A stretch of DNA of 64,000 nucleotides, taken from assembly GCA_963169695.1 (NCBI GenBank), contig CAUJDS010000011.1:57001-121000 (forward strand). Reading direction: 5' to 3'. Source of the stretch: Bdellovibrionota bacterium. GTDB taxonomy: Bacteria > Bdellovibrionota > UBA1018 > CAUJDS01. The translations under genes and the position numbers were made by a program. Each line of letters begins with the position of its first letter. The stretch's first letter is position 1. Below, piece after piece: positions 42,244-58,467 of this stretch. The notes below the pieces were generated by a model, which saw only the letters and a list, made by a program, of their open reading frames with translations, had not been told where the DNA came from and searched no databases.

Positions 42244-42300
42244 CCCAAAAAGGTGCCAAAAAACGTGTCTCACACGTTTATTGGCACCTATTGAGGAACC
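42244..42300. repeat. Intergenic repeat family, copy 1 (ccaaaaaggtgcc + hairpin + ggcacctattg).
   Basis: Shares the ccaaaaagg, AAACGTGT/ACACGTTT palindrome and ggcacctattg motifs with copies at 43.5 and 44.2 kb. Confidence 0.55.
42256..42283. terminator. Bidirectional rho-independent terminator hairpin between convergent genes.
   Basis: aaaAAACGTGT-ctc-ACACGTTTatt. An 8-bp perfect stem flanked by A and T runs, between the msbA-like stop (42243) and the lipoprotein gene stop (42288). Confidence 0.6.
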
Positions 42301-43500: not shown

Positions 43501-43545
43501 CTATGACGCGCCTCGGGCCAAAAAGGTGACGGGCACCTTTTAAAA
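43501..43545. repeat. Intergenic repeat family, copy 2 (tgacgcgcctcgggccaaaaagg + hairpin).
   Basis: The 23-mer tgacgcgcctcgggccaaaaagg (43504-43526) is identical to 44172-44194. It is followed by the hairpin AAAAGGTG-acggg-CACCTTTT. It lies in the divergent region between the lysozyme-like gene and the 43557 lipoprotein gene. Confidence 0.55.
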
Positions 43546-43556
43546 AGGTCTTCAAT

Positions 43557-44162
43557 ATGCTAATGCCCGGCAATATGAAAATATTACTCAGAATGCTCCT
43601 TTTATCCCTTCTGCCGGCCGCCTGTGCCACTCCCCGTTTTGATGCACGAATAGAGCCCAATCAGGGTGACTCTGCTCAAATCAATGCGGCAATCGATGGT
43701 GTAACAGAAGAGCAGGAGAACGAAATCAAAGTCCATATGGGAAGCTTGCCAGCTGGAGTTCGAATCAATGGGGAAACGGTCGAACTCAGCAGTTCCTCAC
43801 CTCTAAAATATTTAGGACCAGTTCATACGACAGGTGGAAGTGGAGTTTTTCAATGGTCCTTCAACGATGACCGTACCGAGTGGTGCAGCGTTAGTAACGT
43901 TCTTACCATCGCTACAGGCTTCCTCTGGTCAATTTTGCCAATGCACTATCCTTGTTGGCCGTCTTACACATCAGACAGCCTCGAATCTGTCGAAATGAGG
44001 AAAACACACCTCCTTCGCGCGCTTAAGCGTGCGACCGTTGCAGCCGGAGGAAGTATTTTAGTCGTAAGATCGTTCGGACGAGTCGAAATCTTCAATGGCT
44101 TGACCGGCCATCACCTCGATTCAACCGAAATGGTCAATGCGCAAGGCTGGGCTTTCAAATAG
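43557..44162 (+). CDS. Lipoprotein of unknown function (201 aa).
   Basis: Signal peptide and lipobox (LLSLLPAAC). Confidence 0.45.
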   Translation: MLMPGNMKILLRMLLLSLLPAACATPRFDARIEPNQGDSAQINAAIDGVTEEQENEIKVHMGSLPAGVRINGETVELSSSSPLKYLGPVHTTGGSGVFQWSFNDDRTEWCSVSNVLTIATGFLWSILPMHYPCWPSYTSDSLESVEMRKTHLLRALKRATVAAGGSILVVRSFGRVEIFNGLTGHHLDSTEMVNAQGWAFK

Positions 44163-44169
44163 CGGAACA

Positions 44170-44270
44170 ACTGACGCGCCTCGGGCCAAAAAGGAAAAAA
44201 CGTGTGAGACACGTTTTCTGGCACCTATTGGCACGTTTTCTGGCACCTATTGGCAGCACCTATTGGCACC
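44170..44270. repeat. Intergenic repeat family, copy 3: 23-mer, inverted hairpin and tandem 21/22-bp direct repeats.
   Basis: tgacgcgcctcgggccaaaaagg (44172-44194). The hairpin AAACGTGT-gag-ACACGTTT (44198-44216) is the exact reverse complement of the 42.26-kb hairpin. cgttttctggcacctattggca occurs twice in tandem, followed by a third partial gcacctattggcacc. Confidence 0.6.
44195..44220. terminator. Bidirectional rho-independent terminator hairpin between convergent genes.
   Basis: aaaaAAACGTGT-gag-ACACGTTTtct between the 43557..44162 (+) gene and the 44272..47349 (-) gene. Confidence 0.55.
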
Positions 44271-44271
44271 T

Positions 44272-47200
44272 TTATTCCGCTTTGGAAGAAGTGCTGCGGT
44301 AGCGGGCGGCGGCTTCTTTGAGTTCGTCTTTTTTTGCAATGAGGCTACTGGAAATGGATTCGCAACTCGCATCTCCATCATCCATTTTTGATTCACCGGT
44401 TGTCTTCTTCTCAGCGGTCTTATCTCTATTGGCCCGCAAGTCTCGCAAGTCAGCATTCTTTTCTTCTTTTTCTTTTTCTATACGGTCTATTTCATCTTGG
44501 AGATTCTTGCCATTGGCTGAATCAAACGCCGCTTTTCTAAAATCATATTCTCTTTGATCTCTTCTTGCAGCATCCTCCGCTGCGGTCACTTTCGATCGAA
44601 GCTCGTTGTATTCAGCATTCAGTTGGTTTAATACACTTTCAGCTCGAGTCTTATCACTCTGTAATCTTGGCACTTTCTCTGGGTTTTTCTTATCGCCTTC
44701 GGTTGCCTCATAAAAAGCTTTGTCGGCATTTTTTAAAGCCTCATTTGCCACAAACCAGCCACTGCTATCACCAGATTTTTTAAAATTATTTAACCGAGCT
44801 GAAAGCACCTCCAACTCGGACTTCGAGGTCAACCACGTTTTTTCAATTGCTTGAAAATTGGTCTCTTTAGTACCGTAGCTCGCATCATTCTTCGACTTGA
44901 GCGCCGCCAGGTCGGACTTCAACTTTCGAATTTCCTCTTCAGCATCTTTCACTTTCTTCTCAGAACTTGCAATGGAAGCCAGGTCCCTAGCATTACTAGT
45001 CCCAGTCACTTTGCTCACGCCAGATCTCAGGATATCTGCGATATCCCGTGGCAGGTCATTGATCACAAGCTCCATATTCGACGTAAATTCTTTGAGTCGG
45101 TCGGTACCACCAAATTTATCTTCCATCCATGCGCAGGATTCCTTGAACTTGATACCAAGGGCTTCAAGTTCCTTGGCTTTGTCCTTCAAGCGATCCAAAG
45201 AACATTCGGACTTCAGCTCTTCGATTTCTTGAGAGACTTTGGCGATCTTCTGATTCTCTTTTTCTAATTCGGCTGCCTTCTCAGTGACCTTAGACAACTC
45301 ACCATTGAGGTCGCTCGAACCAAAATCAATCAACGGAGTACCTTGCATTTGTCCCGCAATAAGCCCCATAACATTCGTGCTTTTGCCCGGAATAGTAATC
45401 GGTTCGCCACTTGCTGTTTTTCCGACAACCTCTTGTGGTGCCTCAACCGGCGAAATGTACTTAAACCGAAAACCACCCGAAACTCTCAAGTCTTTTCCCG
45501 ATAGGTATTTGGATATCTTATCCAGCTGAGTCTTGATACTAGCAGCGTCTCCCGCAGGCCCACTGAGTGCCTGGCCAATAGTTTTGAGCTTGGTCGTGTA
45601 GCGTTCTTCCGCCAATCTCGCTGCCTCTTGCTGATTGCTTCGTACTTCGTTCACCGTGCGAATAAAATTGGTCGTCTGCTGCTGAAGGTTGCTAATAAAC
45701 CCTTCGATTCCTGCTCCGGGAATGGTCAAATTCTTTACGTAAGTGCCACCCTTGAAAGTCATGCTCGTAACCGAGACCTGGGGGTCGTCGCCGCGAACCA
45801 GAGAGCCCAATGTTTTTTTGAGGTCATTCAGGCAATTTTCTTCTGCATAGCCCAATGAGCTATCACACTGTTTGGTAGGAATGGCCACGTGGCCAGCACC
45901 TAGGACGCGCGCCACATTTTGAATATCAGCGGTATACTGCCCCAACATGGTCTGCGCAATTTGTTTGGAGGTTCGGCGAGTTTCTTCAATCTCTCGCTTC
46001 TTGTTGGCCAATGGGGTGCCTTCTTGTTTGGTACGACTGTTCACCGTCTTAAAGGCTGCGCTATAACAACCGCTCACTGCTGCATTGAGGAATCCTAGCA
46101 GATTGATTCCCGGCGTACTGATTCCAGAAAAGCGCTTGTTCAAGGTGGCAATCAATTCTTCCTTGGACATGATATTGAACGTCTGCCCGCCATAAGCTTC
46201 GGCAGCCTGAGGATTGGTAGCCGCACCTTTGGTCTTTGGCACATCCCCAAAAAGGCGTGCTAGCTGACTCTTCACCAAATTAGCGGTACTTGCGGCAGAT
46301 TTTTTATTAGCTGTACGGGTCTTGGCCTGGCCATCCTCGCCACGAAGGGATTCTTGCTCAATGCGTTCCAACAAAGCTTGCTCTCGACTACAAGAAACCG
46401 TTTGGCCAAGTTGCTCGCCTTTTCCAAGACACTTCATATTTGGGTCTGGTGTCTCTCGGAAGCAACGCTCAGTCTCTTCCATAATGGAGACGGACCATTG
46501 TTGATTGTATTCGGTGACTTTCTTTCTGAGATCCGACATAGCACGACTAACAACGGCTGAATCATTTTCGAGGCGGACGTTGAAATCTCCCTGGCCACGG
46601 GCCAACTTTTCTTTGAGTTGAAGGAGTCCGTCCTGTCCAACGGCTGGATTACCCGAAAGCTTAAGTTGAACTTCTTGTTGCTGCTGACCCAATTCTTCGA
46701 GCGCCTGACGATAGCCTTTTTGTACACGAAGGTTTTCGTCTACTTCCGATTGAAGGGGCGAGGCCAAAGAAGACGCGAATTGCTGAAAACTGCTGCCCTT
46801 TTCTACCAGACAAGCTACTTCCTGTTGCACGTAGTTGGCTTTGTTGATCTTACAAATATTGGCTTCTATTGCTGCCGCGTTATCTTGAATCAAACTACTC
46901 GTGGCCTTGAGACTAAAAACTCCCGTCTTATCTTTTACTGAAGAGGAGCTACAAGAAGGCGCAGATAGCACGGGGGTCACTTCCGGACAGTCGACTTCTA
47001 GCCCCATCGCGTTCTGCGCGCTACCGACGAAGGCTGAGTTAGAAATCTTCTTTGCTTTGGTATCTGTATAGCCAAGGTCCTCGTCTTCCGTAGCCTTTGG
47101 CGCTGCTTTGCTTTGCCTTGCTACTTGAATCACTTTACCTGTCAGACATTGATAGGGAAGCGACGGAGATGCTAGCCCGGTCAAATTGACATTGGACGAT

Positions 47201-47349
47201 GAGAAGTTGGTGGAAGGTCCCCAGGCAGCCGGCAAGTTTACCGAGGGCGCATTCACTGCAGCTGCATGGGCAAAAAGCACAACTCCTAAACCCGTAGGAA
47301 TAAGAAATCCAATGACCATTGCAAAATGAGGACGAAACAAACCCCGCAA
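44272..47349 (-). CDS. Large secreted coiled-coil protein (1025 aa), unknown function.
   Basis: N-terminal signal/TM (VIGFLIPTGLGVVLFAHAAAV). Long K/E/Q-rich predicted coiled-coil segments. Multiple Cys pairs. No recognisable catalytic domain. GC lower than its surroundings. Confidence 0.6.
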   Translation of the reverse strand: MRGLFRPHFAMVIGFLIPTGLGVVLFAHAAAVNAPSVNLPAAWGPSTNFSSSNVNLTGLASPSLPYQCLTGKVIQVARQSKAAPKATEDEDLGYTDTKAKKISNSAFVGSAQNAMGLEVDCPEVTPVLSAPSCSSSSVKDKTGVFSLKATSSLIQDNAAAIEANICKINKANYVQQEVACLVEKGSSFQQFASSLASPLQSEVDENLRVQKGYRQALEELGQQQQEVQLKLSGNPAVGQDGLLQLKEKLARGQGDFNVRLENDSAVVSRAMSDLRKKVTEYNQQWSVSIMEETERCFRETPDPNMKCLGKGEQLGQTVSCSREQALLERIEQESLRGEDGQAKTRTANKKSAASTANLVKSQLARLFGDVPKTKGAATNPQAAEAYGGQTFNIMSKEELIATLNKRFSGISTPGINLLGFLNAAVSGCYSAAFKTVNSRTKQEGTPLANKKREIEETRRTSKQIAQTMLGQYTADIQNVARVLGAGHVAIPTKQCDSSLGYAEENCLNDLKKTLGSLVRGDDPQVSVTSMTFKGGTYVKNLTIPGAGIEGFISNLQQQTTNFIRTVNEVRSNQQEAARLAEERYTTKLKTIGQALSGPAGDAASIKTQLDKISKYLSGKDLRVSGGFRFKYISPVEAPQEVVGKTASGEPITIPGKSTNVMGLIAGQMQGTPLIDFGSSDLNGELSKVTEKAAELEKENQKIAKVSQEIEELKSECSLDRLKDKAKELEALGIKFKESCAWMEDKFGGTDRLKEFTSNMELVINDLPRDIADILRSGVSKVTGTSNARDLASIASSEKKVKDAEEEIRKLKSDLAALKSKNDASYGTKETNFQAIEKTWLTSKSELEVLSARLNNFKKSGDSSGWFVANEALKNADKAFYEATEGDKKNPEKVPRLQSDKTRAESVLNQLNAEYNELRSKVTAAEDAARRDQREYDFRKAAFDSANGKNLQDEIDRIEKEKEEKNADLRDLRANRDKTAEKKTTGESKMDDGDASCESISSSLIAKKDELKEAAARYRSTSSKAE

Positions 47350-47598
47350 GACACATCCCCCGATACCTTATTATTTTACAGGGTTAATAGCGGATTTGAA
47401 AAGGGAAACTACCATCCGCTTGCCCAATCCGAGAAGCCGTTGAGTTACAGGCAAGTAGTCAAAGAACTGTCGGATTTTTAGACAGGGACTGTTTAGCGAT
47501 TGGACAGCGGAAGTGGTTTGCCGAATGCACGATGAAAATCATACGTCATTAAGAAGCTCCTTGAAGTCTGCAGAGGTTTTCACCGGAGCCACCCGGCC

Positions 47599-49262
47599 CC
47601 AGCAAGGCGGGTTTGATTCTTGGAAGTGGGTAATGGATGACAGGAAGGGGAGCAGCGAGGGAGGCAAAATTGAAAGAGTATTTTCAGTAAGGACCCGTGA
47701 ATACTCGTTTCATTGACTCCCTTTCTGCGCGCGAAATGGAAAGGAATTTTTCATCATCCTATTTGTAATTCAGAATTTTTCTCAAATTTTCTGTCATTTT
47801 TGCTTGACCGAGTTTTTTTATAAAAGGGTATTCTTCATTCAGTAAATCCAAGCAATGCGTAATGTCCTATTGCACGCGCATAATGCCTCAGTAGAGCATC
47901 GTTCGCTTAGCAATCCTCCGGGCTCATTTGAATGCTTGTATCGAGTCTCCTATAGAAGACTAAGGACTAAATATTCGACCAAAAATTCCGTGATAAGTAG
48001 TTTCGAAGAAAAAGAAACGGAGAAATGCAATGCTGCAAAATGAATCCACTCAAGCGTCAAAGATTAAAAATATTAGCACAGAACAATCGCCTTCTAGCCT
48101 CAAGGGATTGTCGGATTCTCAGTTGCAGCTTCGAATCCGAGAGCTTGCCAAAGCGGAACAGAGACTGACTTTACAAGTGCTGCTTCACCTCAAAGAAATC
48201 TCCGATCGCAAGCTCCATGCAAAGCTTGGATATGCTTCCTTATGGGAATATGCGGTGAAAGAACTAGGCTATTGCGAGGCTTCCGCTTCCTCTCGTATTG
48301 CGGCGATGCGACTGATGGTGAGTGTTCCAGAAGCTAGGACTCAGATCGAAAACGGGAAACTCACACTTTCTCAGGCAGCAAGGATTCAGCAGTTTATTCG
48401 CAAGGAGAATCAAGTTTCTTCTCAGCCCATTACGAAAAGCGAAACCAAAGCAATCATCCAGGCCTCCGTAGGTACTTCCATCCGAGAGACCCAGAGGATG
48501 CTCGAAGCCAAAGCCCAAGAACGAAGACCCAGCCTGATTGCAGAAAAGCCGAATCAACCTACTATCTCCTTCCAAGCCGATGAAGAAACCATGCAAATGC
48601 TAGAAAGGCTCCGAGAGCTGCGTGGAAACTTGGGAGCCTTGGAGTTATTTAAGCTAAGCCTGAGAACCACTTTAGACAAACTCGATCCACTCCGAAAGAA
48701 GCAGAAGGTAATAGGAAATAGCAAACCAGATCCATCCCTTTTTGCGCAGAAACCCGAGGATGATTGCCTCGTTTTTGATAGGAATTTATGCCCAACTTCT
48801 CCGAAGCCTTCACGCTTTATTCCGCAATGGATTCGGATCGAAGTGGCTAAGCGTAGCAAAGGCCAGTGCGAGTACCATAGTCCTTTAAACGGCAAGCGAT
48901 GCGAGAGTCGGTACCGCGTTCAATACGACCACATTGTGCCGATTGCTCGTGGGGGAGTAGGAACGCTAGCTAACATTCAGCACCTTTGCGGACTGCACAA
49001 TCGTACAAAGGGGGTGCAGATGGAGGCTGCGTACTTCGGGGTAGGACATGCAGTTGCGCCACCAGAAAGAAGAAGCTAATTTTGGTACTTATAGTGAGTA
49101 CGCGCGCGCGAAGAAGGGAAATGTTTTGATTGGCTAACAGGCAACTGTAAAATGCATGAATGTTTTGCAATTTTGAACCTACTTTTTGCACCCCCTCACC
49201 CTTGCTGTTCTCCATCCTGTCATCCATTGCTAACTTCCAAGAATCAAACCCGCCTTGCTGGA
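47599..49262. mobile_element. TIR-bounded cassette carrying an HNH endonuclease gene (putative small mobile element).
   Basis: Left repeat 47599-47655 (ccagcaaggcgggtttgattcttggaagtgggtaatggatgacaggaaggggagcagc). The right repeat 49201-49262 is its imperfect reverse complement. The first 29 bp are identical and overall identity is about 85% over about 60 bp. The pseudo-ORFs 47513..47716 (+) and 48970..49269 (-) encode the same QQGGFDSWK.MDDR peptide because of this symmetry. Confidence 0.6.
48030..49079 (+). CDS. HNH endonuclease domain protein (C-terminal HNH, N-terminal ~250 aa uncharacterised).
   Basis: C-terminal CEYHSPLNGKRCESRYRVQYDHIVPIARGGVGTLANIQHLCGLHNR is an HNH motif (CxxH..C...DHIxP...GG...N...LC..HN). 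Confidence 0.8.
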   Translation: MLQNESTQASKIKNISTEQSPSSLKGLSDSQLQLRIRELAKAEQRLTLQVLLHLKEISDRKLHAKLGYASLWEYAVKELGYCEASASSRIAAMRLMVSVPEARTQIENGKLTLSQAARIQQFIRKENQVSSQPITKSETKAIIQASVGTSIRETQRMLEAKAQERRPSLIAEKPNQPTISFQADEETMQMLERLRELRGNLGALELFKLSLRTTLDKLDPLRKKQKVIGNSKPDPSLFAQKPEDDCLVFDRNLCPTSPKPSRFIPQWIRIEVAKRSKGQCEYHSPLNGKRCESRYRVQYDHIVPIARGGVGTLANIQHLCGLHNRTKGVQMEAAYFGVGHAVAPPERRS

Positions 49263-49465: not shown

Positions 49466-49936
49466 ATGAAACGACGCTATTGGATCCTAAAGAACGAAGT
49501 GACGGACTACTCCATCGATGAAATGAAAAAAGACGGACAGACCGATTGGACGGGAGTCCGCAACTACCAGGCTCGTAATTTTATGATGAAGGACATGAAA
49601 GCTGGAGACTGGGCCTACTTCTACCACAGCAATGCTGAGCCTCCGGGATGCGCCGGCATTATAGAGATCTCTCGCGAAGCAAAGCCCGACCTCACGGCAC
49701 TAGACCCCAAGAGCAAATACTTCGAAAAGCGGGCCACCAAGGAAAACCCTGTATGGCATTGTGTTCAAGTAAAGTTCAAACGAAAGCTGAAGCGTCTCGT
49801 ACCCCTCAGCGAACTTCGAGAAAACCCAAAGCTCAAAGACCTCTTACTTCTCCAACGAGGAAGTCGACTTTCGATCACGCCCGTCAGCCAAGAAGCATTT
49901 GAAGAAATAGAAAGAATGTCCAAAGAGATCCGATAG
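49466..49936 (+). CDS. EVE domain protein (PUA-like, DUF55).
   Basis: 156 aa. MKRRYWILKNEVTDYSIDE...WTGVRNYQARNFMMKDMKAGDWAYFYHS...GCAGIIEISREAKPD... matches the EVE/thymocyte-nuclear-protein-1-like fold signature. Confidence 0.8.
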   Translation: MKRRYWILKNEVTDYSIDEMKKDGQTDWTGVRNYQARNFMMKDMKAGDWAYFYHSNAEPPGCAGIIEISREAKPDLTALDPKSKYFEKRATKENPVWHCVQVKFKRKLKRLVPLSELRENPKLKDLLLLQRGSRLSITPVSQEAFEEIERMSKEIR

Positions 49937-49940
49937 TGCT

Positions 49941-51545
49941 TTATCGCCTTCCAAATACAACATCCAAAGCACACCGAATCAAGGAACGCCTTTCAACGCT
50001 CTTTGAAGACTCCTTGCCTTTATCCGGATCCAAGAGTGGCTCGAGAAAGGACCTCAGGGCCAACTGACCTTTTGCCTCATTGGTATAGAAATCATGCAAC
50101 ACCGCCTGACCGGGTTTGACCCAGGCCAGAGTGGATTGATCAGTCCCAAGTACCAGCGTCTTTTGAAAGTCCGCGTGGAGGTTAGCCATATGCAAAAATC
50201 CACTATCTTGGGTAATTATGGCGCTGGCTTCTTTCATTGCTGAATACCATATGGGTTTGAGGTCCGGCTCGGCTGGAAGGAATGCAAGCTTGCCTGTTTG
50301 CTCTTGGTATTTTTTCAAAAATGCTTCCGCCTTTGCATAAGCTGATTGAATAGCTTTTTGTTCTTCAGCGTAGTGCTGCGAACTTGGATTCTCCAGTGGT
50401 GTAACTATAATGCGGGTACGGGGATTGACCGAATGGACCGTGCGAAGGATCGCTTCCAGTGCTGCATCTACCTTAGGTCCAATAACCGCCGTCTTAAAGG
50501 TTCCAGCTGTGTTGAGATTCAAAACAAGTAGTGGACCGTCCTGTGACCGAAAGGACGAGCTCAAAAAAGCCCTCCATGCGTTCTCTTCCGCGGGCATTTT
50601 CAACAAAGTGGCCGGAATATGAAAGTCCACGGGAGTCCCAAACAGCACGCCACTTTGCATGCCACTCACTTCATAATTAGACCTGCTCCTGCCAATAAAC
50701 AGATCCTTCCACTTGTCCCAAATCTGATGCCCTGATTCCTGATGACTCGTTTCAATCAGAGAACGCTGAGCTGGGGTGAGGTTCTTGTTCCAAGAGTAAA
50801 CCTCCGCAAGTCCCCCTTCCGTCAGAATCGCCGTCCCTTCTATCGCCTTCAGACGATCTCGGATCGCTTTCTTTACGTGATGGGCTACCCAGCTACTTGC
50901 TTGAGCAATTCTCTCGTTAGATCGCTTGTCAAAAGGTAGTTTCTCTCGCAATCGCCTACGAATTACCGTATTAACAATTTCTCCATCCAAATAACTCGCG
51001 TCCACATAGTAAAGCGTCGTGGGATGTTGAAGTGGCGCCAGCATCTTGCCAAGAAAAGGCTCTAGCTCCCACTTCCAACTCACTGGTGATTTGAAATCGG
51101 TATCCGCCGCATACCGTTCAATTTGACTAAAGACATCCTGACCAATGACTTCCGGAAGCCTCATCGGCTCCAATATCAATCCGCGCTGCGCTCTCAGAAT
51201 ATCTACAAACGGGCTGGTTACGTGCAAAGGAGTTGTTGGAAAAGCGGACTGAATCCCATTCAGCGCCGAAAATCCAAATAGCACCGTATCGCCAAGGTAG
51301 GAGCGATAGCTCAAGAGATGTACCTTCTCCCAAGGCAACCTGATCAATCCGGTAGCCTCTACCATGCTTCGAGGCAAGGGTCCCGTTATCCCAGCAACAC
51401 GCAGGAAATCCGCCCAAAATCCGGGTGGAACCTTCCGGGGTTCCGCTGCAAACACGGAGACCTGCAAGGCCAAGAAAAGGCACAAAAACAAATGTCGCTT
51501 GCAGTGCCGGCCTATGAACTTCTTGAAGAACATCCCTTTCCTCAC
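49941..51545 (-). CDS. Secreted hypothetical protein with a GT9 (heptosyltransferase)-like C-terminal region.
   Basis: Signal peptide (LFLCLFLALQVSVFAA). C-terminal ...IITQDSGFLHMANLHADFQKTLVLGTD resembles the GT9 xTNDSGPMHLAAA...LFG motif. The N-terminal half has no known domain. Confidence 0.4.
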   Translation of the reverse strand: MRKGMFFKKFIGRHCKRHLFLCLFLALQVSVFAAEPRKVPPGFWADFLRVAGITGPLPRSMVEATGLIRLPWEKVHLLSYRSYLGDTVLFGFSALNGIQSAFPTTPLHVTSPFVDILRAQRGLILEPMRLPEVIGQDVFSQIERYAADTDFKSPVSWKWELEPFLGKMLAPLQHPTTLYYVDASYLDGEIVNTVIRRRLREKLPFDKRSNERIAQASSWVAHHVKKAIRDRLKAIEGTAILTEGGLAEVYSWNKNLTPAQRSLIETSHQESGHQIWDKWKDLFIGRSRSNYEVSGMQSGVLFGTPVDFHIPATLLKMPAEENAWRAFLSSSFRSQDGPLLVLNLNTAGTFKTAVIGPKVDAALEAILRTVHSVNPRTRIIVTPLENPSSQHYAEEQKAIQSAYAKAEAFLKKYQEQTGKLAFLPAEPDLKPIWYSAMKEASAIITQDSGFLHMANLHADFQKTLVLGTDQSTLAWVKPGQAVLHDFYTNEAKGQLALRSFLEPLLDPDKGKESSKSVERRSLIRCALDVVFGRR

Positions 51546-56469: not shown

Positions 56470-58467
56470 TTGACAGTGGGGGATCAGGCTATCTTAAAAA
56501 AACTTATGACACTAGGGATACTCCTGCTTGGCCTTGATGGAATGGCCTGGGCACAGGATTATCGGACCGTCCGAAAAGAATTAGAGGCGGCATTCTCACA
56601 ATTGGCTGACGCGGGTGATTCGAAGGAAGTCGAGGCCTCCCAGGGGCGTATCCAAACTTGGATCAGTGAGTGGGAAAAGCATCCCACCGAGATGGGCGAT
56701 CAGGCCTTGCTCTTGATCGGCAGAAAATACCTCTCCTCTGAAAAAGATCCGGAAATTCAGCGTAGTGCCGCCTCCCTTCTTCTTAGCACCTTGAAGCGCC
56801 ATCCTTGGGCGAGAAATGACCTTCTGGCTTTTGCCGAAACTGAGATTCCATCCAAACCCTTTCTCGGCCAACTCCTAAAGGCAGACCTGCCCAATGCTGA
56901 AATGCTCGAACGTTCGCTACAGATTCTCCTTCGCCGTCCTGACTACGCGGTGGATCTCGCGATGGCACTCTTTGACAATAATGGTCGTACGTGGAAGTCT
57001 GTCTTTCTGGAACGGCGCGATCTCCTCGCCCGAGTCCTGGACACTCGCAACCTTGAACGCGCATTTGAGAACTGGATCTCTCTGCACTCTTTGATTCATA
57101 GTGAAATTTCGAAGGAAGAGCTTTTCAATACGCCAGCGTTCTTTAATGCCTGGCTTCGCGAAGGCCGAGCCATTCCAGAACTGCGAAGTAGAGCTGAGAC
57201 TTTAGTCAACAGTGCGAGCCTTGAAGACCTGCCTGCCCTTGCCAAAGATCCCAGGACCTACGTTTCTCAGCTAGCCATTCCTAGGCTCCTCTCGCTCCAT
57301 TTAACTGAGGCCATACAAAGAGATCTACCTAATGGACTTGTTCAAGATCTTTTTTGGCGATGGAATGAAGTTGAAGAAGATTCAGACTTTTCTTCCATAC
57401 CTGGAACTTTTTTCATCCTTGGACGATTGTCAACTCAGAGTGATATCGCCGCAATCACAAAGAAAGGGTGGAATCAAGGCTGCGCTACTCCCTTCGTTCG
57501 AAATTTCTTCCGCTTTCTCGGTAGAACGGACGCCTCGAAGCCATTACCCGAAGTGACCCATCAGTGGATCCTTCGTCAAATGAAAAACTGCCCTTGTCCG
57601 AAGATCCACCCTTTGCTCGACTCCTACTTTGCTTATACCTCTCCCGACGAGCCCACCCAAAGTGGGCTTGCAAAGCAAATCGCAGCCATCATAGAAAGCC
57701 GAACTGCATTATCCGAAGATAATCCTCTCGCTTTGGACTTAGAATGGTCCCTTCCTATCAATATTCTGCTGGGCGCCGCCGGCTCCACCAACTGTGAGAA
57801 AATACTTCTTTGCTCTACTTGCTCTATCAATGCAAGATTGTTGGCGCTCTTTCACTACGGAAAATACCATCTCATCGAACCCTATTTTGACGAATTTGAA
57901 AGACTCTTCCACGCCCTCATCGAAGAGAAAAAGGGAAACGATACAGACTGGATTTACAAGACAAAGGATTTTTTTGAAGTGCTCAGCGAATCGCCTAGCG
58001 AACGGCGCCGAATGGAAGAGGTGCTACTTCATGAACTTCAAACCCAGGACGAAAAAGGAATCTACTGGCTCCTTATATCACTTTCATCGTCGCCGCTCTA
58101 TTCTAGCGATTTAATAAATCAGTTACTACGACTGATTCAGCCTATTGGCGGGCCCGTTCCTATTTGGTTGGTTCTCAATACCGTACGCAACCTACTGGAG
58201 AGACCTGATAAATTTGATGAAGCGACTTTTTACGCTGCATTTGATCAAATCCACAACGTCGTCGTGGCTACCAAAGAACTTCACTTCGTCAAACAAGAAC
58301 GGTACTGGGCGTTGATTATGAGCCGAGCTACCGAAGAAAAAGTTGTGGCCTACCTTGGCAATACTTCTGGTTGGAAACCCAAGGAAATGGAACGTTTTGT
58401 AAGAGCAACGCTCTACGTCCTAAAAAAACTCAACCTCGAGCCACCACCTGCTTTGCTTCAATACTAA
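56470..58467 (+). CDS. Secreted hypothetical protein (665 aa), helical-repeat-like.
   Basis: Signal peptide (MTLGILLLGLDGMAWAQ). The probable start is the internal M at about 56506. No known domain. Confidence 0.45.
   Translation: MTVGDQAILKKLMTLGILLLGLDGMAWAQDYRTVRKELEAAFSQLADAGDSKEVEASQGRIQTWISEWEKHPTEMGDQALLLIGRKYLSSEKDPEIQRSAASLLLSTLKRHPWARNDLLAFAETEIPSKPFLGQLLKADLPNAEMLERSLQILLRRPDYAVDLAMALFDNNGRTWKSVFLERRDLLARVLDTRNLERAFENWISLHSLIHSEISKEELFNTPAFFNAWLREGRAIPELRSRAETLVNSASLEDLPALAKDPRTYVSQLAIPRLLSLHLTEAIQRDLPNGLVQDLFWRWNEVEEDSDFSSIPGTFFILGRLSTQSDIAAITKKGWNQGCATPFVRNFFRFLGRTDASKPLPEVTHQWILRQMKNCPCPKIHPLLDSYFAYTSPDEPTQSGLAKQIAAIIESRTALSEDNPLALDLEWSLPINILLGAAGSTNCEKILLCSTCSINARLLALFHYGKYHLIEPYFDEFERLFHALIEEKKGNDTDWIYKTKDFFEVLSESPSERRRMEEVLLHELQTQDEKGIYWLLISLSSSPLYSSDLINQLLRLIQPIGGPVPIWLVLNTVRNLLERPDKFDEATFYAAFDQIHNVVVATKELHFVKQERYWALIMSRATEEKVVAYLGNTSGWKPKEMERFVRATLYVLKKLNLEPPPALLQY

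Follow-up and report, generated by a model that had tools for sequence, protein, structure and literature searches.

The window analysed here is a stretch of 64 kb from a Bdellovibrionota bacterium (positions 57,001 to 121,000 of contig CAUJDS010000011.1, assembly GCA_963169695.1), and the element in question is a unit of about 1666 bp within it (47596..49261, forward strand) in which one HNH endonuclease gene lies between long terminal inverted repeats. From left to right, the unit comprises the left repeat arm (47599..47661, forward strand), an AT-rich leader of 368 nt (47662..48029, forward strand), the HNH gene as its sole gene (48030..49079, forward strand; 349 aa), a 3' spacer of 119 nt (49080..49198, forward strand), and the right repeat arm (49199..49261, reverse strand). 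The outer limits were taken from the positions at which contigs of the Logan assemblies break, as described below. The G+C content of the leader is 37–41%, compared with about 49% for the open reading frame (ORF) and the surroundings.

A repeat search delimited arms of 63 nt each that are 89% complementary and spaced by 1537 nt, and they form the strongest repeat of any kind within the window. When the upstream region was aligned by Smith-Waterman to the reverse complement of the downstream region and scored against shuffles, z was 36.8, the top value among 56 loci of the gene family. The outer 29 nt are identical between the two arms, and this 29-mer, CCAGCAAGGCGGGTTTGATTCTTGGAAGT, occurs exactly twice in the window with up to 3 mismatches allowed, once on each strand, with 0 occurrences expected in 100 shuffles of the window; no further occurrence of the terminus was found elsewhere in the 64 kb. 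Conservation is much higher in the outer 29–30 nt than in the inner 34 nt (79%) or the ORF. One strand of the arms is rich in purines, and the arms yield mirror-image pseudo-ORFs that read ...QQGGFDSWKWVMDDR... on the forward strand and ...QQGGFDSWKLAMDDR... on the reverse strand. Each arm contains two direct CAGCRAGG copies 53 nt apart (left arm, forward strand: outer 47600..47607, inner 47653–47660; right arm, reverse strand: outer 49253..49260, inner 49200–49207), with 4 of the 13 matches in the window inside the 126 nt of the arms, and these sub-repeats are candidate protein-binding sites. The flanks of the unit read ...CACCCGGCC on the left and AGTTGCAC... on the right, with no target-site duplication in any register.

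A preliminary description of this DNA had reported inverted repeats of about 60 bp with an identical outer 29 bp, mirror-image pseudo-ORFs on both strands, a single HNH ORF behind an AT-rich leader, and no obvious target-site duplication, all of which was reproduced here. It had also allowed for a foldback element, a role for which no support was found, and for the arms being two copies of a common repetitive extragenic palindromic (REP) element. REP hairpins were ruled out, as neither arm is palindromic or folds on itself and the window contains no REP family. A structured or guide RNA in the leader was likewise rejected, since the unit gave no Rfam match at E≤1 and the leader folded no better than its shuffles (z=+1.27).

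The leader holds a TTGACC motif resembling a -35 element (47804–47809), and GGAG lies 7 nt ahead of the ATG. The extended motif TTGAC[ACT]G[AG] (47804–47811 in the window) was found in 11 of 64 family loci, 117–418 nt upstream of the ATG; the other ten are L011, L015, L021, L022, L025, L030, L040, L050, L051, and L057. It usually follows an A/T-rich run and appears in elements whose proteins are only about 30% identical, and its recurrence hints at a conserved promoter followed by a long 5' untranslated region. Promoter and terminator predictions inside the unit did not exceed shuffle expectation. In the 3' spacer, a weak outward sigma-70-like site (49126–49153, TTGATT-16-TAAAAT) agrees with the consensus at 9/12 positions, a level not above shuffles; it lies near the right end and faces an EVE-domain gene 204 nt past the element. 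Insertion sequences often carry outward promoters.

The HNH protein and its family

The window protein alone scored slightly below the curated cut-off of Pfam HNH (19.7 bits vs 21.4, E=1e-3). PHROG HNH families matched it with a best E of 4e-8, and Pfam HNH was matched by 91 of 97 family members (best 1.6e-9). Across the 97 sequences C280, H301, G309, and H323 are invariant and C291, N315, C320, and N324 are at least 90% conserved, while D300 is invariant in the 14 closer relatives. The HNH assignment is secure because of the PHROG match, the large share of relatives matching Pfam HNH, and the near-invariant Cys/His/Asn columns. The HNH (His-Me finger) nuclease domain occupies residues 261–334 (48810..49031, forward strand), possesses the beta-beta-alpha fold of the HNH superfamily, and carries its motif intact (C280, C291, D300-H301, N315, C320, H323-N324).

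Ahead of the nuclease lies a helical domain (residues 29–165; 48114..48524, forward strand), so that the protein displays the domain order of the DUF222-HNH type. The AlphaFold model of the 349-aa protein had a predicted local distance difference test (pLDDT) score of 73.8 overall and about 90 or more for residues 31–160, with a disordered linker. In this model, the confidently folded N-terminal domain resembles the helix-turn-helix domains of ParB, KorB, and SopB and is remotely DUF222-like, and may accordingly be a DNA-binding domain. No transposase, RuvC, or defence-system family was recognised in the protein by Pfam, NCBIfam, or PADLOC; its sole NCBIfam match was Cas9d at 12.4 bits. The PHROG matches were limited to the HNH domain, save for one weak N-terminal match to a function-unknown family (E=1.4e-3). 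Across Pfam, NCBIfam, Rfam, PHROG, and PADLOC, the unit showed no known transposase and no phage, intron, or intein context.

The size of the family was estimated by an exhaustive profile search over 1.84 billion cluster representatives, which returned 29211 matches at E≤1e-3, of which 4573 reached E≤1e-30; among the top 150, almost every match covers essentially the full profile. A word-indexed search had given only 15 relatives, which reflects the sensitivity limit of that method, and the reading of a very rare protein was overturned by the exhaustive search. DUF222-like recognition had been proposed as an informative check, and the answer was weakly positive: 36 of 97 family members match Pfam DUF222 at E≤0.1 (best E 7.5e-7; one match viewed in detail reached 17.2 bits vs a cut-off of 24.4), whereas the window protein and its 13 nearest relatives show no match to DUF222 (PF02720) at E≤1. 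Since over a third of the members match DUF222 while the window protein does not, this very large family is probably remotely related to proteins of DUF222-HNH architecture.

Copies in this genome and in related genomes

Four further intact proteins (P0002–P0005) are 81–90% identical to the window protein and to one another. The adjacent EVE-domain gene (ORF 49466–49936) has an exact match on the same contig, while the next best of its homologues in a set of 5.8 billion proteins shares only 63% identity, and its best named matches are from Bdellovibrio. This low identity indicates that the database holds no close relative genome, so P0002–P0005 must be paralogues from the same organism. Among the five copies, variable columns amount to 72–93% in the disordered tails and linker and to 14–17% in the folded domains. 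Because substitutions sit in the disordered segments and spare the folded domains, all five copies are under purifying selection.

The boundaries of the repeated DNA were read from the assembly graph. If a sequence recurs elsewhere with different flanks, a de Bruijn assembly produces contigs that extend k-1 nt from a unique flank into it. In three sequencing runs that contain the source organism, the right-flank contigs all begin at 49232, 30 nt inward from the outer end of the right arm, and one left-flank contig reaches 27 nt into the left arm before it stops at 47625 (30 nt counted from 47596, should the unit begin there). Logan contigs are built with k=31 (PMC12424806). From the contig start at 49232, the repeated DNA stops on the right exactly at the outer end of the right arm; on the left it begins within 3 nt of the outer end of the left arm, possibly at 47596. 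Two other causes of the breaks were rejected on position: contigs would have started at 49262 with an empty-site allele and at 49233 if the segment between the arms had flipped, whereas the three runs all gave 49232. The HNH gene itself is not intact in the Logan assemblies of these runs, as expected if the paralogues share 31-mers.

Taken together, the paralogues and the contig breaks strongly argue for at least five copies in this genome, with the unit boundaries at the repeat ends. The suggestion in the preliminary description of a small mobile unit therefore stands as far as a discrete repeated unit bounded by repeats is concerned; the unit is presumably mobile, and an empty-site contig was not found in the Logan assemblies. 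A 24-nt terminus gave 0 matches in the JGI metagenomes, and the peptide encoded across the right arm returned only itself in a protein search.

A scan of species-representative genomes identified 75 related loci, mostly in Bdellovibrionota. Copy number reaches about 9 to 10 in some of these genomes; many of the copies are located at contig ends, and several are pseudogenes with frameshifts or stops. Copies from the same genome have the leader, the ORF, and a short 3' tail in common at 80–95% identity. A significant flanking inverted repeat was found at 8 of 56 testable loci including the window, several of these being host REP palindromes, and none at the other 48 (about 85%). Terminal inverted repeats are a feature of certain lineages and not of the whole family. 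The sampled DNA of related genomes contained no solo or empty termini.

In OZ245336, a 1.5-Mb Bdellovibrionales chromosome, the homology between copies starts exactly at TGTATGTGTTCAGTAATTCGCTGACA and stops exactly at its reverse complement. These copies have a 26-nt terminal inverted repeat, ends of the form 5'-TGT...ACA-3', and unrelated flanks, and 5-bp duplications (ATTCC or GGAAT) within an arm of a host REP palindrome flank 2 of the 3 intact copies. The chromosome also has degenerate copies of the HNH element, and, away from these elements, about 75 kb of its sequence contained no further terminus. The chromosome (loci L016, L036, L037, L022) is rich in REP palindromes of the form GTCATTCC-N8-11-GGAATCCAG, which resemble the Neisseria dRS3 motif ATTCCC-N8-GGGAAT. 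The HNH elements enter one REP arm with the 5-bp duplication, in either orientation, and the copy L016 has mismatched flanks, as if recombination had occurred between two copies.

In three lineages, elements abut host REP palindromes or lie within them. The HNH copies of the JAPPLG genome have inverted host REP palindromes on either side. A second repeat there, CAAATCCGAACTCGTTTGAGCCTCTTATACAAAATATTTTATCCTG (46 nt), lies upstream of the REP arrays in L021, L030, and L059, and inverted downstream too in L021; it is possibly a further mobile repeat of small size, nested around these HNH genes. In UBA2339 (L031, L033, L043, L061, L065, L066, L069, L074), 1–4 tandemly spaced REP palindromes GTGACCCGCGCCAGCGCGGGT precede every HNH copy, and the last lies at a fixed distance from the leader, which means that the REP either belongs to the unit or serves as its target. 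In nzgw168, terminal inverted repeats are missing from the unit, and the left boundaries of its copies are ragged. A GC-rich hairpin GGGGCGGCGGCCGTGGGACCTTTCAGGAGGTCCCGGCCAGCCGCCC lies at the left end of the unit, about 330–610 nt upstream of the protein match (L018, L019, L023, L026, L041), and the hairpin shows no covariation, its sequence being nearly invariant.

Known systems and the mode of spread

The DUF222-HNH genes of the REP13E12 repeats are probably the closest named relatives of the window protein, judging from sequence comparison. Both kinds of unit have a single ORF that encodes a helical domain at the N-terminus and an HNH domain at the C-terminus, measure about 1.3–1.7 kb, exist as several diverged copies per genome, and encode no transposase. 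REP13E12 loci recombine frequently, 'lack defined biological function', and are gene-conversion hot spots in M. tuberculosis (PMC13061034), and they act as repeats in mobile-element screens (PMC10589994). The differences are that the window protein lacks a significant DUF222 match, that its host is Bdellovibrionota-like while REP13E12 hosts are Mycobacterium and other Actinobacteria, and that the window unit is bounded by long terminal inverted repeats. No paper linking inverted repeats with 13E12 was found in a literature search that did not cover the original description (Gordon et al. 1999). Closer to the present host, Peredibacter genomes were reported to carry 10–13 HNH endonucleases each, some at strain-specific sites, with their ends not analysed (PMC13147790). 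The architecture had been called unusual by the preliminary description, and this applies to the sharply bounded terminal-repeat form, which is new, but not to the family, which is very large and whose actinobacterial relatives are already known as dispersed DUF222-HNH repeats of unexplained mechanism.

Free-standing HNH homing genes of the phage type resemble the window unit in being lone nuclease genes with their own promoter, and the window HNH domain matches phage families. Nevertheless, the window unit is chromosomal and intergenic among housekeeping genes instead of lying in a phage, intron, or intein, it is multi-copy in one genome with discrete ends and terminal repeats, and its N-terminal domain is ParB/KorB-like in place of a typical homing-endonuclease DNA-binding module. 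No empty allele of the window unit was found in Logan contigs, and no cognate target is known. With insertion sequences, miniature inverted-repeat transposable elements (MITEs), and mobile insertion cassettes, the unit and its relatives have in common terminal inverted repeats, a size of 1.3–1.8 kb, several copies, sharp ends, and, in OZ245336 alone, 5-bp target duplications. In contrast, Pfam and NCBIfam found only HNH in the window unit, with no DDE, HUH, or DEDD transposase and no serine or tyrosine recombinase, and its copies are far more diverged than those of typical active insertion sequences. Because a known transposase and a target-site duplication are both absent at the window copy, the unit belongs to no known insertion-sequence family.

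Two further systems were excluded. The upstream non-coding leader and weak NCBIfam matches to IscB and Cas9d over the HNH region recall IscB/OMEGA and Cas9, but the scores across the family were 12–27 bits (IscB 15–27) vs cut-offs of 175 (IscB) and 375 (Cas9d), the unit has neither a HEARO or omega-RNA nor any other Rfam match, and the leader shows no excess structure; lacking a RuvC domain and a guide RNA, the unit is not a member. RAYT/REPIN systems likewise place a gene between inverted short repeats, and the relatives in three lineages that abut host REP palindromes add to this likeness. The window enzyme, however, is an HNH protein instead of a Y1 HUH transposase, its gene is multi-copy, and its arms are neither palindromic nor a dispersed family in the window, and membership was rejected on the lack of an HUH enzyme and of palindromic arms.

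The unit (47596/47599–49261) is quite likely a copy of a multi-copy selfish element whose termini are the inverted repeats. We put the probability that it is a multi-copy, single-gene selfish element that spreads in a homing-like manner, taken as a whole, at roughly 0.55; the homing-like copying route, considered as a part of its own within the selfish-element reading, is put forward tentatively. By this route, the protein would bind DNA sequence-specifically, with the paired CAGCRAGG motifs of each arm as candidate sites, and its HNH domain would make a DNA break, into which host recombination and repair would copy the whole unit. Spread would then occur among copies of a dispersed target sequence, as in homing, and not by DDE-type strand transfer. 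The route is favoured because most of the family lacks terminal repeats, because left boundaries are ragged in at least one genome (nzgw168), because the elements lie repeatedly in dispersed host repeats that could serve both as target and as repair homology, and because the related REP13E12 loci are hot spots of gene conversion (PMC13061034).

Several points weigh against the selfish, homing-like element. The copies are 10–18% diverged, and frequent homing or gene conversion should homogenise them. The strongly conserved outer 29–30 nt point to a terminal function and fit an end-recognising transposase better, and the TGT...ACA ends of the OZ245336 copies with 5-bp duplications at two of the three intact ones are a signature of DDE-type transposition. 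No target sequence for the nuclease was identified. Moreover, copy number and boundaries in this genome come from paralogue proteins and contig breaks and not from paralogue DNA, and the left contig end, at 27 nt instead of 30 nt inside the repeat, leaves an uncertainty of 3 nt at the left boundary. The missing duplication at the window copy, together with the 10–18% divergence, fits neither homing nor transposition neatly.

The strongest competing explanation, itself unlikely, is that the helix-turn-helix HNH protein is a transposase of a class not described before, which would recognise the paired CAGCRAGG motifs in both repeats, excise or nick the element ends, and reinsert the unit without DDE, HUH, or recombinase chemistry. 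Between the long terminal repeats, each arm of which has two direct sub-repeats, the nuclease gene stands alone, and no other transposase was detected in the unit. The identical outer 29–30 nt, which judging by the k=31 breaks other copies share despite 10–18% protein divergence, are consistent with such an activity, as are the OZ245336 copies, where homology ends exactly at the 26-nt repeat and duplications accompany two of three intact copies. On the other hand, the family as a whole cannot depend on inverted repeats that about 85% of its loci lack, the window copy has no target-site duplication, and the age and divergence of the copies do not suit a recently active insertion sequence. His-Me finger nucleases act by hydrolysing DNA and are not known to carry out strand transfer, which also speaks against a transposase. 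A 2026 review further records no prokaryotic transposon driven by a protein-guided homing-type nuclease, and the only transposon-borne homing-type nuclease that it lists is that of the eukaryotic KolobokP, which has its own DDD/E transposase (PMC13565253).

Another explanation is a stable, non-mobile paralogue family in which the repeats are the protein's own binding sites, serving autoregulation or repeat maintenance, as in domesticated RAYTs. The age of the copies (81–90% identity), the purifying selection that acts on all of them, an ORF G+C content equal to that of the host, and the lack of any empty site or recent insertion among the DNA searched would suit this explanation, as would the JAPPLG genes, which inverted host REP palindromes bracket much as they do RAYT genes. 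It is nonetheless improbable: the outer repeat ends are sharp limits of the repeated DNA, beyond which the flanks are unrelated; many related copies are pseudogenised or lie at contig ends, as is common for selfish repeats; the window arms do not form hairpins like REP units, and no REP family accompanies them in the window; and some HNH genes occupy different positions in different Peredibacter strains (PMC13147790).

Ends of the TGT...ACA type with 5-bp duplications are typical of transposons with a retroviral-integrase-type DDE enzyme, such as Tn7 and Mu. The HNH gene could on that account be a passenger or homing invader in a non-autonomous, MITE-like cassette moved in trans by a DDE insertion sequence, and terminal repeats without a recognisable transposase, their restriction to certain lineages of the family, and the OZ245336 ends and duplications are in keeping with this; it is the least probable of the alternatives, as genes of the same kind form multi-copy units in many unrelated genomes with or without repeats, which makes accidental cargo unlikely, while the terminus occurs nowhere else in the window or in about 75 kb of the OZ245336 genome outside the elements, all five paralogues keep intact and constrained proteins, and the window copy shows no target-site duplication.

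Lone DUF222-like HNH genes are annotated in thousands of bacterial genomes, and the function of REP13E12 in M. tuberculosis is undefined about 25 years after its description. The present locus and its relatives give this family a clean anatomy, namely a unit of 1.3–1.8 kb with one constrained gene in several copies per genome, to which some lineages add sharp terminal inverted repeats and target duplications. They raise the question of whether an HNH nuclease alone is sufficient to mobilise DNA, and by which route. Should the selfish element spread by homing into dispersed repeats, it would be a case of a homing gene that proliferates in a genome without an intron, intein, or phage. If the protein acted on its own termini, it would add a new nuclease class to the transposition chemistries and provide compact sequence-specific nucleases. 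Were it an HNH transposase, the DUF222-like HNH family, with thousands of 50%-identity clusters, would represent an unrecognised superfamily of prokaryotic transposable elements, and the REP13E12 repeats of M. tuberculosis would be explained too.

Genomic surroundings

A phage or defence-island context was ruled out for the unit, as the PHROG matches were mostly HNH-only, PADLOC returned nothing meaningful, and the neighbours are housekeeping genes. Two flanking ORFs on the reverse strand encode a coiled-coil-looking protein of 1025 aa (44272–47349) and a protein of 534 aa (49941–51545). Because neither matches Pfam, both are probably lineage-specific to this Bdellovibrionota-like organism. 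Further to the left, two near-identical terminator-like hairpins (42248–42293 and 44195–44230; 35 nt, 91% as an inverted pair and 86% as a direct pair) enclose a 1.9-kb block with a pesticin-like lysozyme (PF16754), a 198-aa ORF, and a 201-aa lipoprotein-like ORF. Within this block, Logan contigs in three runs break at 43538 and another contig resumes at 43852, which suggests that 43539–43851 is a variable or repeated stretch.

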